Positions 22,405 through 28,602 are shown, counted from the first letter of the stretch. The stretch: 64,000 nucleotides of DNA from Myxococcota bacterium (GCA_020630615.1 JAHDBA010000011.1:2321-66320); one strand, 5' to 3'. Notes: generated by a model from the letters alone, not told the origin. A program made the numbers and translations.

Positions 22405-22480
22405 TTGGCTCCGCAGGAGGGACTCGAACCCCCGACCTGGTGGTTAACAGCCACTCGCTCTACCAACTGAGCTACTGCGG
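22405..22480 (-). tRNA. tRNA-Asn (anticodon GUU).
   Basis: The minus strand reads TCCGCAG-TA-GCTC-AGTTGGTA-GAGC-G-AGTGG-CTGTTAA-CCACC-AGGTC-GGGGG-TTCGAGT-CCCTC-CTGCGGA-G-CCA. This folds as a cloverleaf with GUU at positions 34-36. Confidence 0.9.
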
Positions 22481-23198
22481 ACCGTGCCCCTTTTGTTTCA
22501 GAATGGAGGAAGAGTGTCAAGTGTTCTAATGCAGAAAGGAGCTAAAAATTGTGAGCGCTATAGTTTTGGCCTTGCTGAGTTGGAATTGAACTACACCAAC
22601 AAGCGAATACGTTGTGGAGATTTTTTGGGTGCGCGTTCGATTTCACCCCGCGCCTCGATATCGGTCTTAATGTAGCGTGTGTAGTTTGTGAGACGCCCCT
22701 TCGGGAAGGGACATCGGACTCCAACTCTATTTGGACAAAAGCGACAACATCTTTAAGGAGGATGCCATTTGTGACGCTTTCGTTGTTGTCCATGTATCTA
22801 AGGATAGCGTCACGAACGAGCAGATATTGTTCAGCAGAGACGGTGAAAGCTTCTGAATAGTTGGGTCGGTTTGCGTTAAGAATTAGCGCGCGACCTTGTT
22901 GTTATTTCTCCTCCACTCGGGAAATAACATCGACAGGAAGTACGGAACACGCAGCCTTAGAACAGCCATTTTTAGGCAGGGGGTACTTAACATTTCGCAT
23001 GCCACTGCGATGTCCATGTCGGGGAAGTGTTACCAGCGGACTCACTTTGGAAAGATACTTCTAGCATGTGAACATATCCCACCCAGGTCCATCATGCGAA
23101 ACATTAGGAAATCAGGCTTCTGGACCAAATAAAAGCTTCGGGCCTGGTACATCTGTTCAATATCGAGTATCGAAGAGGTTGTTTGTGAGGAGTCCATC

Positions 23199-23489
23199 AT
23201 GGGTGAAGCGATAACGGAAATTGTAAGTCGCGAGATGACCTTTTGGAATATGGTCGGGCATAGCGGGTATTTGCTACTCTTTATCTCTTTCTCTGTGAGT
23301 CGACTCTCCGTCTTACGAATCTTAACGATTAGCGCAAACTGCTTTGTCTTCGCTCATTTTTTCTGGGGCTATCAGGATGGAAGCTTTCAATGGACTCATG
23401 TCAAATGGGTCCCCGTAATGTGGGCAGTCATCTATAACATAGTCAATGTTTTGAAGCTTATCCAGGAGTCAAAAAAGTCAGAGCAATGA
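23199..23489 (+). CDS. Small hypothetical membrane protein (96 aa, about 3 TM). Paralog of the next gene.
   Basis: SD GAGGAG lies upstream. Hydrophobic segments present. Shared motifs with the 23617 ORF are LRILTISANCFVFAHFFW versus LRVITLIGLAANIAFFWCAL, and WAVIYNIVNVLKL versus WNSLYFAVNVYQL. Confidence 0.5.
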   Translation: MGEAITEIVSREMTFWNMVGHSGYLLLFISFSVSRLSVLRILTISANCFVFAHFFWGYQDGSFQWTHVKWVPVMWAVIYNIVNVLKLIQESKKSEQ

Positions 23490-23616
23490 TTCTGATGCCG
23501 GGTGTGCTCTCAGCTTGAAGCGACGCTCTCAGGCTTGACGGAAAAGATAGGTTAGGTATATTTCGCGCAAATTGATTTGCTTGGTTGAGACCGTGAGGTC
23601 TTAAAGGAGTGGATGG

Positions 23617-23898
23617 ATGACGCAGATGAGCCTTGGTACGATCCCGCTAACAACAATCTTGTGCAATCTTGCCGGAGCAATGTTTTTATTGGCGTATGTG
23701 GTGCGCCAGATGTGGCTACTGAGGGTGATTACCCTAATCGGCCTTGCTGCCAATATTGCTTTCTTTTGGTGTGCCCTCGGGACGAGTGAGATAAGCCCCA
23801 TCGTGTGGAACAGTCTCTATTTTGCGGTCAATGTCTATCAGCTTGCCTGTATCAGACATAAGCAGAATCATGAGACAAATTCGCTTTCCATATCTTGA
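23617..23898 (+). CDS. Small hypothetical membrane protein (93 aa, about 3 TM). Paralog of the previous gene.
   Basis: SD AGGAG lies upstream. Frame chosen by paralogy with the 23199 ORF. Confidence 0.5.
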   Translation: MTQMSLGTIPLTTILCNLAGAMFLLAYVVRQMWLLRVITLIGLAANIAFFWCALGTSEISPIVWNSLYFAVNVYQLACIRHKQNHETNSLSIS

Positions 23899-23952
23899 GA
23901 CACTTTTCGGCTAAGCTTTCAAGATGAAGCTTCACGGCTTATTCTAGCCGAT

Positions 23953-25764
23953 ATGAAGGTTGTGAAAGGTCTAGGGTTCTCGGGCATTGGGAGGCAGGAC
24001 TCTGAGAAGCGTGAAGTCTCTACTACATCACAAAGTGCAGACTCTCTCACCTCTACAAATGTACACCATCCGGATGAAGATTCGTTCGGTGCTGAACGAA
24101 AGAACGGGCCACATGGTATCGACTCCGTAAAGCCCAATGAAGGTGCGCCTGCAGAGCGCGGGACGTCACCCGCTGCGAGCGAGTTGTTACGGCAGATTCA
24201 ATATTCTCGTTCGACATCGGAGCATCGTGCGCTCATAAGTGCTCGTTATGATTTTGATGAAGTGATGGGGGACGACTCGAGAGACATGGTATCACGCAAG
24301 GTCGCAATCCTTGACCAAATTGCTCTTGATGGGCGCAAAGGCCGGCTTAGCGAAGAAGTTTTCTATGCAGCACTTCAATGGGTCAGCGAATGTATGGAGG
24401 GTGAGTTCGCCTCTTTCGAGCATGAGCTTGCACAGGCGATGGCAGTACTCGTCACAAGCGCGACCCTGGAGCAAGACATCACTGCAATTGCAGAGCTTGG
24501 CGCAAAGCTGGATCTCAATTTCTACGGTGAAGATCTTGCACGAGCAATCTTTGAACATCCCAATGTGGATGCGCTGCATGTTGCGGCAGAGTTCCCGAGA
24601 TATGTGATGGCGATGCTCAATGAAAATGCAAGAGGAGCGAGCTTTGAACTTGAGAGTCGATGGTTTGAAAATGGGGAGGCGAGTGTTGTTCCTTTTGGAG
24701 GCAGCCGCCAGCCAGATTCAAGTGCGGCGCTGATCATGGCATGCGTTCGGCAGGTGCAAACACAAGGACCCGCGACGGAACGTTATATTGAGATTGTGAG
24801 TGGCCTTTTGAAGTCGCTAACGCCATCAGAACGTAGCGCTTTCTTTAGGCGTTTTGGGTCAGGGGAAGTCATCGAACGCTTGCGTCATCGCTGGACCTAT
24901 CAAGAAGGTGCAGAACGTCTCAACCCTTGGCCTTTAGTGAGTCTTGAGCGTATGAAAGGTGAGGTCCCAAACATGGTGGCCCTTATCAGTGAGCTCCTGG
25001 GGAAGAATATTATGTTGATGGAGAAGATGCTTTCGTTGCCAGACAATCGCACCTTCTTGGAGCGTGAATTCCCCCGCGAGATGCTTCGCTATCGAAGCGT
25101 CAAGAAGGAGCTTTACGCAATGCGCATTACCAACTTTGATTTGATGCCTTTCTCGCATGCACCAGAACGCGTGATCGAGATGTGGGACGATGAAAGCGCT
25201 CGAGTCGATGAACGCCCAATCGCTGTGGTCGTTCAAAGCCCAGTGGATGCCAATCTTGCAATGGATGCCAAGGGCGATTTTGAGCAACTCTACAACAATT
25301 ACAGAGTTCTTTTTACACAGGCCAGAAATGAAGAAGAGCTTGAAGATGCAATGCGACATTTTGATGCCGTGGTCTGCGATACTAAAATTCAACTGATGGT
25401 TATTGCGGGACACGGAAGCGTAGAGAGTATTGCCCTCGGGGCTGATGACCCCCGTTACGATGATAACGCCAATGAATCTGAGCTTTTAGACTTAAGTGAC
25501 TCCGAGATGTTTAAAGAGATGTTCAGACATCGTTTGGCGCCGGGGGCTGATATTGTTTTGAAAGCGTGCAGTACGGGTGCTGAAAATCAGGAGGGCAACC
25601 TCGCTCAGCGGATTGCAGAGGCAGTACCTCAAGGCAGGGTTCATGCTTTTCCGGATGATAACAACAGTACACTTCTTCTGGATCCGGAAGGAACATTCGA
25701 ATCTCTGAAGTTGCGAGATAGCGATGAAGGACAAGAGGTCATTGTTTTCGAGCCTACCGAGTAG
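23953..25764 (+). CDS. Large acidic hypothetical protein (603 aa) with a C-terminal caspase/CHAT-like (clan CD peptidase-like) domain.
   Basis: No signal peptide. C-terminal ~250 aa are paralogous to the next gene. The putative catalytic dyad is LMVIAGHGS (His at nt 25411-25413) and DIVLKACSTGAE (Cys at nt 25567-25569), 52 residues apart. Confidence 0.55.
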   Translation: MKVVKGLGFSGIGRQDSEKREVSTTSQSADSLTSTNVHHPDEDSFGAERKNGPHGIDSVKPNEGAPAERGTSPAASELLRQIQYSRSTSEHRALISARYDFDEVMGDDSRDMVSRKVAILDQIALDGRKGRLSEEVFYAALQWVSECMEGEFASFEHELAQAMAVLVTSATLEQDITAIAELGAKLDLNFYGEDLARAIFEHPNVDALHVAAEFPRYVMAMLNENARGASFELESRWFENGEASVVPFGGSRQPDSSAALIMACVRQVQTQGPATERYIEIVSGLLKSLTPSERSAFFRRFGSGEVIERLRHRWTYQEGAERLNPWPLVSLERMKGEVPNMVALISELLGKNIMLMEKMLSLPDNRTFLEREFPREMLRYRSVKKELYAMRITNFDLMPFSHAPERVIEMWDDESARVDERPIAVVVQSPVDANLAMDAKGDFEQLYNNYRVLFTQARNEEELEDAMRHFDAVVCDTKIQLMVIAGHGSVESIALGADDPRYDDNANESELLDLSDSEMFKEMFRHRLAPGADIVLKACSTGAENQEGNLAQRIAEAVPQGRVHAFPDDNNSTLLLDPEGTFESLKLRDSDEGQEVIVFEPTE

Positions 25765-25812
25765 CGTGTAGCGTGACCAAAATGAGACACTTGCGGCCTG
25801 GTTCCGCTTTAA

Positions 25813-28452
25813 TTGTCTGACGAAGCCACACATCCGTTACACTGGTTTATGTCGACTAAAATCGGAAGAGGACAAAACCCAATTCTTCAGTCACCAAAGC
25901 CTCGGAAGAATGTAGAGGGGCAAAAGCTCGAGAACACAATTGATGGTGCATGCCCGATTGGCGCTGACGAAGCGGTCAGCGATTCGTTTGATGCTTGCTT
26001 TGAAGCAACGAGTCTTGAAGCATCGAACACGAACAATTTGGAGACACAGCGAGTGCAGAAGCAAGCGATGCCCAGTCGAATACCGGACGCGCTGCATGAC
26101 GCATTGACCGACAAGTCTACCACGAAGCTTGAAAGCGTTGTATTGAAATCTGAACTAAGCACTTCGGTTTGGGATGAAAGAATCGATTATGCACTTTCAC
26201 CTCTATCCGGTGAAGAGGCATCATCGAAGGTCTATTTCAATAAGCTCTGTGACGCGAATCAAGTTGGTATTTTGCTCGCAACAGATGAAGGCCGCGACCA
26301 GCTCGCAGTGAGTCTCGTTGAACTTCGCTTGAATGACGTTTCGCAATACGAAGAAGTCAGTCTTTTCATTGCGACATCGTTCACGAGCACGGAGTTGCTG
26401 CAAGTTGTTGGCGAAATCGATGTGCACTCTTTTCAGCTTTTATCGTTGGACACGGTCAGGGATGTTGTTGTGCTGAGCGAGTTCACGCCAAAGATCTTCT
26501 TCCCAATATTGGAGTCTCGTTTGTTAGAACTTGGAGTGCCGAGGGAGCTTACCTCACAGGTCGTAGATGAGGGTTTAATCGCGCTGGGTGAAGAGGGGAT
26601 TGAAGGGTGGATGAACGCGCTTGGACCGGTCTTTGACCGCCAAAGGGTTTTTGATGCCTGGATGAATGTTTGGACAGACATTGTTGAGCGGGAGAACGAT
26701 GCGCACGCTCACAACGATGCGCGTGAAATTGTACTGACGCACACTTTGGCGCTGGGCGAACGCAGCGAACTACGAGGCCTTTATCGAGGCGACCCGAGTC
26801 GCTTCGACGCACTAGCTCGGATCGTTGAATCGTTAGCAGAGGGGGGCATCGAAGAAAGTCTCGCAAACCTAGCAAAACATATGGACGCGGAGCCTCATCT
26901 TAGGAATGTTCTAAGTGAACTGGTTGCCCGTCGTTTCGAAGGGGACATTTTTGACGCGATCGCGAGTAAGCGTCATAGCCCTGATCTTGAGTCTGTTTTG
27001 CAGTGGTTGGAAAGTTCACCGAACAAGATATCTTGTTTTCAGAGGGTTTTTGACCAAGTTTTGTTAACAACCACCGACGCTACCCTTCGTGCACGGTTGC
27101 TAGAACTTGCAAAACATTCTTCGCCCGATGAACAAAACGCATTGTATCGAACTATTGTTTTGGGGGATGAGACGTTACCCGACTCGTGTTTGGAAGGGTT
27201 GGGACCGCTCCTCGATACATACTTGTTGCGACAAGACGGCATTGTGGATGTTGATTTGCTGCGCAGCACGTATTCAAATCACAACTTTTTAGTCACATAT
27301 CATATTTACCGTCGTGATGACTTTGCTTTGGACTTGGCGCGTAGTCTCGCGGGTTATGATGACAACATTGAAACTTGGACGAAGTCTGAAGGGCTTGATG
27401 AACATCAAGAAACATCAATCTCTACCTTTCTCGCAGGGCTAAGTCGTATCCGCAGAGTGGGGAAAAAACAAGGTTTCGGTGAAGATGCAATCAACCGCCT
27501 ATTGCAGCTGTATTGGGACTCTGAGATTTGTGACGTGCCAGAAACTGACATGCTTGACCATGGGCTTTCTGTCTTTGGTGATTACGAAGGGCTTGACCTA
27601 AAAAAAGCGTACTTTGCAGACGTTTGGACAAATCGTGTGCTTGACGACGGTGACCTTGACTCCGTGGCCAATGCACTTGATGCAAACATCATGCTGATGT
27701 CGAAGATGCTGACGCGTGCAGGAAACCGTGAATGGTTAGGGGCGAATTACCCTGAAGAGTTGACACGTTATGAGACTTTGAAAGCGGAACTCGCAGAGAT
27801 TGGCATCGTAGATTACGACATCATACCTTTTAAGAATGAACCCGAGAAAATTTTGGAGGGATGGAAGGCCCAGAAGGATGAACGCCCCGTGGCGATTGTC
27901 ATACAAAGCCCTGAAGATTGGAACTTGGGTTTTTACCATGGCATTGCAGAGCATTACCCCAAACTCTATGAATCCCATCGTGTTCTTTTTGCACATGCTC
28001 GCGGCGAAGAGGATGTCGCGAACATTGGGGCGAGGGCTCATGGGTTTTTGGGCGAGTCATCGATTGATGTTTTGGTGCTGGCGGGTCATGGTTCTCAAAA
28101 CATGATTAGTTTTGGCGCAAAGGACCCTCGTTTCTCAGGCGACAAGGCGGGGCTTGCGCATCTTGATTCTGATGATGACTCGCTGCTTGAAGCTTCGTTT
28201 GCGAAACTCTTGAACGCAGACTCGGATATTGTTCTCTATGCGTGTAGCAATGGTGCAGAAAAAGAGAGTCAGTCGAATTTGGCAAAGGTTGTCGCCTCAT
28301 GTGTTGGGCAAAGTCGCGTTCACGCTTTGCCAGACCCGAACAATGCTTCTTTCACTTTTGATGAACACGGTCGTTTTCGAGGTCTCAAACTGGCAAACAC
28401 CAACGAAGGGCAGGTCCCGGTCGTGATTGAGCCAGACGCGTTAATTCGGTGA
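25813..28452 (+). CDS. Large acidic hypothetical protein (879 aa) with a C-terminal caspase/CHAT-like domain. Paralog of the previous gene.
   Basis: Starts 48 nt after the previous stop. The track start is TTG at 25813; the first ATG is at 25849. The N-terminus is helical, repeat-like and unrelated to the 603-aa protein. The shared C-terminal domain has LVLAGHGSQ (His at 28087-28089) and DIVLYACSNGAE (Cys at 28243-28245), 52 residues apart. Confidence 0.55.
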   Translation: MSDEATHPLHWFMSTKIGRGQNPILQSPKPRKNVEGQKLENTIDGACPIGADEAVSDSFDACFEATSLEASNTNNLETQRVQKQAMPSRIPDALHDALTDKSTTKLESVVLKSELSTSVWDERIDYALSPLSGEEASSKVYFNKLCDANQVGILLATDEGRDQLAVSLVELRLNDVSQYEEVSLFIATSFTSTELLQVVGEIDVHSFQLLSLDTVRDVVVLSEFTPKIFFPILESRLLELGVPRELTSQVVDEGLIALGEEGIEGWMNALGPVFDRQRVFDAWMNVWTDIVERENDAHAHNDAREIVLTHTLALGERSELRGLYRGDPSRFDALARIVESLAEGGIEESLANLAKHMDAEPHLRNVLSELVARRFEGDIFDAIASKRHSPDLESVLQWLESSPNKISCFQRVFDQVLLTTTDATLRARLLELAKHSSPDEQNALYRTIVLGDETLPDSCLEGLGPLLDTYLLRQDGIVDVDLLRSTYSNHNFLVTYHIYRRDDFALDLARSLAGYDDNIETWTKSEGLDEHQETSISTFLAGLSRIRRVGKKQGFGEDAINRLLQLYWDSEICDVPETDMLDHGLSVFGDYEGLDLKKAYFADVWTNRVLDDGDLDSVANALDANIMLMSKMLTRAGNREWLGANYPEELTRYETLKAELAEIGIVDYDIIPFKNEPEKILEGWKAQKDERPVAIVIQSPEDWNLGFYHGIAEHYPKLYESHRVLFAHARGEEDVANIGARAHGFLGESSIDVLVLAGHGSQNMISFGAKDPRFSGDKAGLAHLDSDDDSLLEASFAKLLNADSDIVLYACSNGAEKESQSNLAKVVASCVGQSRVHALPDPNNASFTFDEHGRFRGLKLANTNEGQVPVVIEPDALIR

Positions 28453-28526
28453 GTGAATACGACGAGCGAACCAGCGGGACGAACTTGCGTTTTTAACTTT
28501 TTTTAGAAATGCGCTTTGGGATATTG

Positions 28527-28602
28527 TGGTGGAGCTAGGCGGGATCGAACCGCCGACCTCCTGCATGCCATGCAGGCGCTCTCCCAGCTGAGCTATAGCC
28601 CC
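28527..28602 (-). tRNA. tRNA-Ala (anticodon GGC).
   Basis: The minus strand reads GGGGCTA-TA-GCTC-AGCTGGGA-GAGC-G-CCTGC-ATGGCAT-GCAGG-AGGTC-GGCGG-TTCGATC-CCGCC-TAGCTCC-A-CCA. GGC sits at positions 34-36. The G3:U70 alanine identity pair is present. Confidence 0.9.

Follow-up and report, generated by a model that had tools for sequence, protein, structure and literature searches.

[quoted passage not shown] In CHAT proteins (PF12770: TPR-CHAT/Csx29 of the type III-E CRISPR Craspase, SAVED-CHAT from CBASS-like systems, and the anti-sigma factor DdvA) a helical or sensor region is followed by a clan-CD protease. Further points of comparison are the CPD domains of MARTX, TcdA and TcdB (Peptidase_C80), and separase, metacaspases, paracaspases and gingipains.

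The window analysed here was one 64,000-nt stretch of a Myxococcota genome (GCA_020630615.1, JAHDBA010000011.1:2321-66320). Two tRNA genes bracket four same-direction ORFs, as stated in the preliminary description and borne out by ARAGORN, Rfam and the ORF calls; the tRNAs lie on the minus strand and the ORFs on the plus strand. The features are:

22406..22481, minus strand: tRNA-Asn (GTT), left boundary (ARAGORN; Rfam tRNA, 68.1 bits)
22482..23198, no strand assigned: ORF-poor stretch of 717 bp with no long ORF; no integrase recognised
23199..23489, plus strand: small membrane protein 1, 96 aa, about three hydrophobic segments; RBS GAGGAG
23617..23898, plus strand: small membrane protein 2, 93 aa, about three hydrophobic segments; RBS AAGGAG
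23953-25764, plus strand: ORF of large protein 1, 603 aa (ORF call)
23953..24984, plus strand: N-terminal part of the 603-aa protein, residues 1-344, an orphan (BLASTP, Pfam)
24985..25764, plus strand: predicted clan-CD-fold cysteine-peptidase-like domain of the 603-aa protein, residues 345-603
25813-28452, plus strand: ORF of large protein 2, 879 aa (ORF call; start TTG 25813)
25813..27663, plus strand: N-terminal part of the 879-aa protein, an orphan unlike that of the paralogue
27664..28452, plus strand: paralogous predicted clan-CD-fold domain of the 879-aa protein (40% identity, E 1e-58)
28527..28602, minus strand: tRNA-Ala (GGC), right boundary (ARAGORN; Rfam)

The large ORFs are paralogues in tandem that have diverged. 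Their C-terminal ~260 aa are common to both (104/260 identical, 40%; E 1e-58) and BLASTP between the N-terminal parts gave nothing significant, in agreement with the homologous C-termini and unrelated N-termini first described; the shared motif blocks quoted there were found, and the nucleotide coordinates listed for His (25411, 28087) and Cys (25567, 28243) agree exactly with the sequence. Each large protein is soluble and acidic (pI 4.77 and 4.65) and consists of a lineage-specific N-terminal region and a ~260-aa C-terminal domain of predicted caspase-hemoglobinase (clan CD) fold; an N-terminal hydrophobic segment is absent from both, and the acidic character and lack of a signal peptide noted earlier were found again. 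Residues 1 to ~110 of the 603-aa protein are enriched in Ser, Gly, Asp and Glu; its N-terminal region resembled neither the paralogue nor any of 148 other family representatives and matched no Pfam family. The domain of this protein comprises a helical lead-in followed by beta1 (DERPIAVVVQS), beta2 (YRVLFTQA), beta3-GHG and beta4-ACS; dyad residues: His487 (nt 25411-25413, GHG) and Cys539 (nt 25567-25569, ACS); in the 879-aa protein, His759 (nt 28087-28089) and Cys811 (nt 28243-28245).

A profile of the shared domain was run in a full HMMER search of a 1.8-billion-protein library; 769 cluster representatives were obtained at E<=1e-3 and 159 at E<=1e-10. The shared domain is a member of a large and widespread family outside the curated libraries: no curated Pfam or NCBIfam model reached threshold with the window proteins, so the domain is assigned to an uncurated clan-CD family. 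Among the matches listed it is C-terminal in 132 of 150 family members. The equivalents of His487 and Cys539 are each kept in 151/154 domain hits, and both are invariant in alignments of 84 full-length relatives and of 32 sequences; other conserved motifs of the family are D-x-R-P-x-A, D-x-N-x-A-F (also given as DWNxAF), YRV-x-Y-x-E, GHG, D-x-x-D, S-C-S-T-G and N-x-A-N. Variable helical repeats joined to a conserved protease domain proved to be the norm in the family: DUF4116 is fused to the protease domain in 51/84 homologues and HEAT, ARM or ANK in others. The domain was also found inside giant proteins: P0120 (2779 aa) with cytidine-deaminase/MafB19-like toxin domains, and P0006 (6180 aa) with two copies of it.

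The AlphaFold2 model of the domain (32-sequence alignment; pLDDT 93.6, pTM 0.91) has the order beta1-alpha-beta2-alpha-beta3(His)-alpha-beta4(Cys)-alpha-beta5; in domain numbering, strand 135-141 is followed by G-H143-G and strand 184-193 by A-C195-S. It is an alpha/beta/alpha sandwich whose predicted central sheet is superposable on those of caspases, gingipains and legumain; His-Gly comes after a core strand and Cys after the next, in the order His then Cys, and this dyad is kept across homologues. The best structural matches of the predicted model are almost exclusively clan-CD enzymes, defence-system CHAT proteases among them. The proposed clan-CD His/Cys peptidase domain is supported by the confident predicted fold, by these matches, by dyad conservation and by the recurrent sub-threshold family matches of homologues given below.

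Membership in the named Pfam families was not obtained. CHAT (PF12770; cutoff 24 bits) gave no match to the window proteins at E<=10, 17 bits (E 0.004) with the family consensus, and sub-threshold matches in 8/84 homologues (best E 8e-5). Peptidase_C14 and Peptidase_C80, also suggested earlier, had no match in the window proteins; C14 matched in two homologues only (E 0.003-0.02), and C80 was never matched among the window proteins or the homologues scanned, so likeness to C14 and C80 is structural only. DUF4347 (PF14252; cutoff 24.6 bits) was the sole Pfam model touching both window proteins (14.7 and 14.4 bits, E ~0.03, below the cutoff); the family consensus scored 18.7 bits and the homologue P0130, at 27.3 bits, lies above the cutoff. 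Sub-threshold matches to CHAT, DUF4347 and Peptidase_C14 recur among the homologues, and the nearest neighbours of the family are DUF4347 (Tce1, P. aeruginosa type VI secretion effector) and CHAT.

Compared with Tce1, the window proteins share the order His then Cys and nearly its spacing (54 residues in Tce1 vs 52 here), in addition to the DUF4347 matches; in contrast, no sequence link to PDB entry 9qpe is detectable, the short N-terminal domain of Tce1, which fits inside Hcp3 rings, is replaced by large orphan N-termini, and T6SS genes are absent among the scanned window ORFs. With CHAT proteins the general layout and the sub-threshold matches are common; the family has, however, motifs of its own (DxRPxA, DWNxAF, YRVxYxE, DxxD), and neither Cas7-11/gRAMP nor a SAVED, cyclase or sigma-factor partner is present here. 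Conserved acidic residues near the site recall the basic-P1 specificity of separase, metacaspases, paracaspases and gingipains and may indicate a similar preference, although sequence membership is lacking. The presence of the domain in giant toxin-like relatives resembles the autoprocessing role of the MARTX/TcdA/TcdB CPD, whereas the window copies sit at the C-terminus of medium-sized proteins that lack toxin modules.

The block had been regarded as a horizontally acquired island; this view was not sustained. Neither the ORF-free stretch 22482..23198 nor the neighbouring ORFs yielded an integrase domain; no direct repeat involves either tRNA and no duplicated tRNA fragment was detected; GC and GC3 of the block are those of the flanking core genes, which include ClpX, NadE, RsmH, FtsI and MurE. 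The protease genes are in ordinary chromosomal surroundings. The 3' end of tRNA-Asn is directed away from the block and that of tRNA-Ala toward it. The stretch 22482..23198 may be a decayed gene, because its minus-strand reading is interrupted across three frames; its sole domain match is a weak DUF6958 hit (E 0.008). A genome scan for relatives returned only one distant Myxococcota locus, and those window proteins that were looked up were all singletons; the nearest relatives are from Myxococcota metagenome-assembled genomes (MAGs). In the eleven relatives' loci fetched, the family gene is solitary amid housekeeping genes with no recurrent partner; an orthologue in a Margulisiibacteriota genome (L002) and in a syntenic metagenome contig (L010) stands stably between glycolysis genes, and one homologue adjoins a MazEF pair. 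A synteny check for pairs of small transmembrane and CHAT-like genes had been proposed; a conserved partner gene was seen in none of these eleven loci, and no homologue of the small membrane proteins was found at the eight searched.

About three hydrophobic segments are indeed present in each of the two small proteins; their paralogy, also claimed, is weak yet above chance (26% identity, pairwise E 0.004; colinear alignment with a Smith-Waterman score equalled by 3/2000 shuffles), and tblastn against the window at E<=1 gave no link between them. Small membrane protein 1 had no match in Pfam, NCBIfam or PADLOC; protein 2 gave a weak POPDC1-3 match (Pfam, E 0.0019). The protein-database search returned no homologue of either, protein 1 matching only the neighbouring protein 2. 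Gaps between the four ORFs are 127, 54 and 48 nt. Because the last two gaps are this short and hold no terminator-like site, an operon link of the small-protein genes to the proteases is possible, and one transcript may cover small protein 2 together with both proteases. The tRNA pair and the genes for the two small membrane proteins count as neighbours of the proteases, any functional link being putative.

Taken as a whole, the locus is probably best explained as a pair of tandem-paralogue clan-CD cysteine endopeptidases in ordinary chromosomal surroundings. From sequence and model, the domain is predicted to act as a cysteine endopeptidase in which the nucleophile would be Cys539 (paralogue: Cys811), where strand beta4 ends, and the general acid/base His487 (paralogue: His759), in the GHG turn after beta3. 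The substrate pocket is probably formed from Asp432, Asp513 and Asp516, acidic family-wide and near the site, plus Asn549; such a candidate acidic pocket would point to basic residues at P1, the preference of metacaspases and gingipains. By analogy with separase and TPR-CHAT, target selection or enzyme latency could depend on the variable N-terminus. Action on specific protein targets within the producing cell is tentatively favoured, at slightly less than an even chance, over effector export, which at this point is possible but rather doubtful. Against an intracellular site it may be noted that the structurally nearest protein is secreted as an effector and that some family members lie within giant toxin-like proteins.

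Export in the fuller sense, as proteolytic effectors or toxins released by a non-Sec route (T6SS-like cargo, contact-dependent delivery or release during predation) and cleaving proteins of prey, competitor or host, is unlikely. The orphan N-terminal regions would then hold the export or targeting information; they evolve fast, and Ser, Gly, Asp and Glu abound at their starts. Tce1, the closest structure, is an Hcp3-bound type VI secretion cargo, the giant P0120 (with its toxin domains) and P0006 contain the domain, the ANK, HEAT, ARM and DUF4116 repeats fused to homologues are eukaryote-like, and the nearest relatives belong to the Myxococcota, a predatory phylum. A signal peptide is lacking, however, and no secretion-system domain, T6SS domains included, was recognised among the ORFs scanned in the 64-kb window, this window being the scope of the statement; nor was an immunity gene recognisable. 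The stable placement of the orthologue in L002 and L010 also speaks against export, and with lengths of 603 and 879 aa the proteins greatly exceed Hcp-lumen cargo (Tce1, 310 aa), which argues against a lumen-cargo role.

A four-gene conflict or defence module, in which a trigger-activated protease would process the membrane proteins or other targets and lead to abortive infection, is improbable; the analogy is to TPR-CHAT/Craspase or SAVED-CHAT systems. All four genes run in one direction with short gaps between them, both modules are duplicated, and the defence CHAT proteases among the best structural matches and the MazEF pair beside one homologue point the same way. The multi-gene conflict system of the preliminary description nevertheless found no support: PADLOC was negative for all four proteins, no sensor, NTPase, cyclase, SAVED or CRISPR component is present in the neighbourhood and no Cas7-11/gRAMP or TPR domain in the four proteins or flanking ORFs; the relatives' genes are solitary, the small membrane proteins are without homologues in the database and at the loci searched, and mobile-element hallmarks are absent. 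A wider reading, in which an undescribed, widespread clan-CD family (at least 769 clusters at 50% identity) bridging DUF4347 and CHAT is both duplicated here and coupled to orphan Popeye-like three-helix proteins as a membrane-linked proteolytic signalling or conflict module, is distinctly unlikely as a combination. Peptidase activity is predicted only, for every family member, and a catalytically inert scaffold keeping the caspase fold for binding, as in Raptor or c-FLIP, would accord with this; pseudo-proteases, however, typically lose the catalytic dyad, and with His and Cys in 151/154 domain hits and the surrounding GHG and SCSTG conserved, such a scaffold is highly improbable.

A promoter-like site (23535-23562) lies upstream of small protein 2 and a terminator-like hairpin (28474-28488) 3' of the 879-aa ORF; the counts of such sites are not above chance. 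In the public gene call (P0002) the larger protein starts at ATG 25849, 12 codons downstream of the TTG, and has 867 aa.

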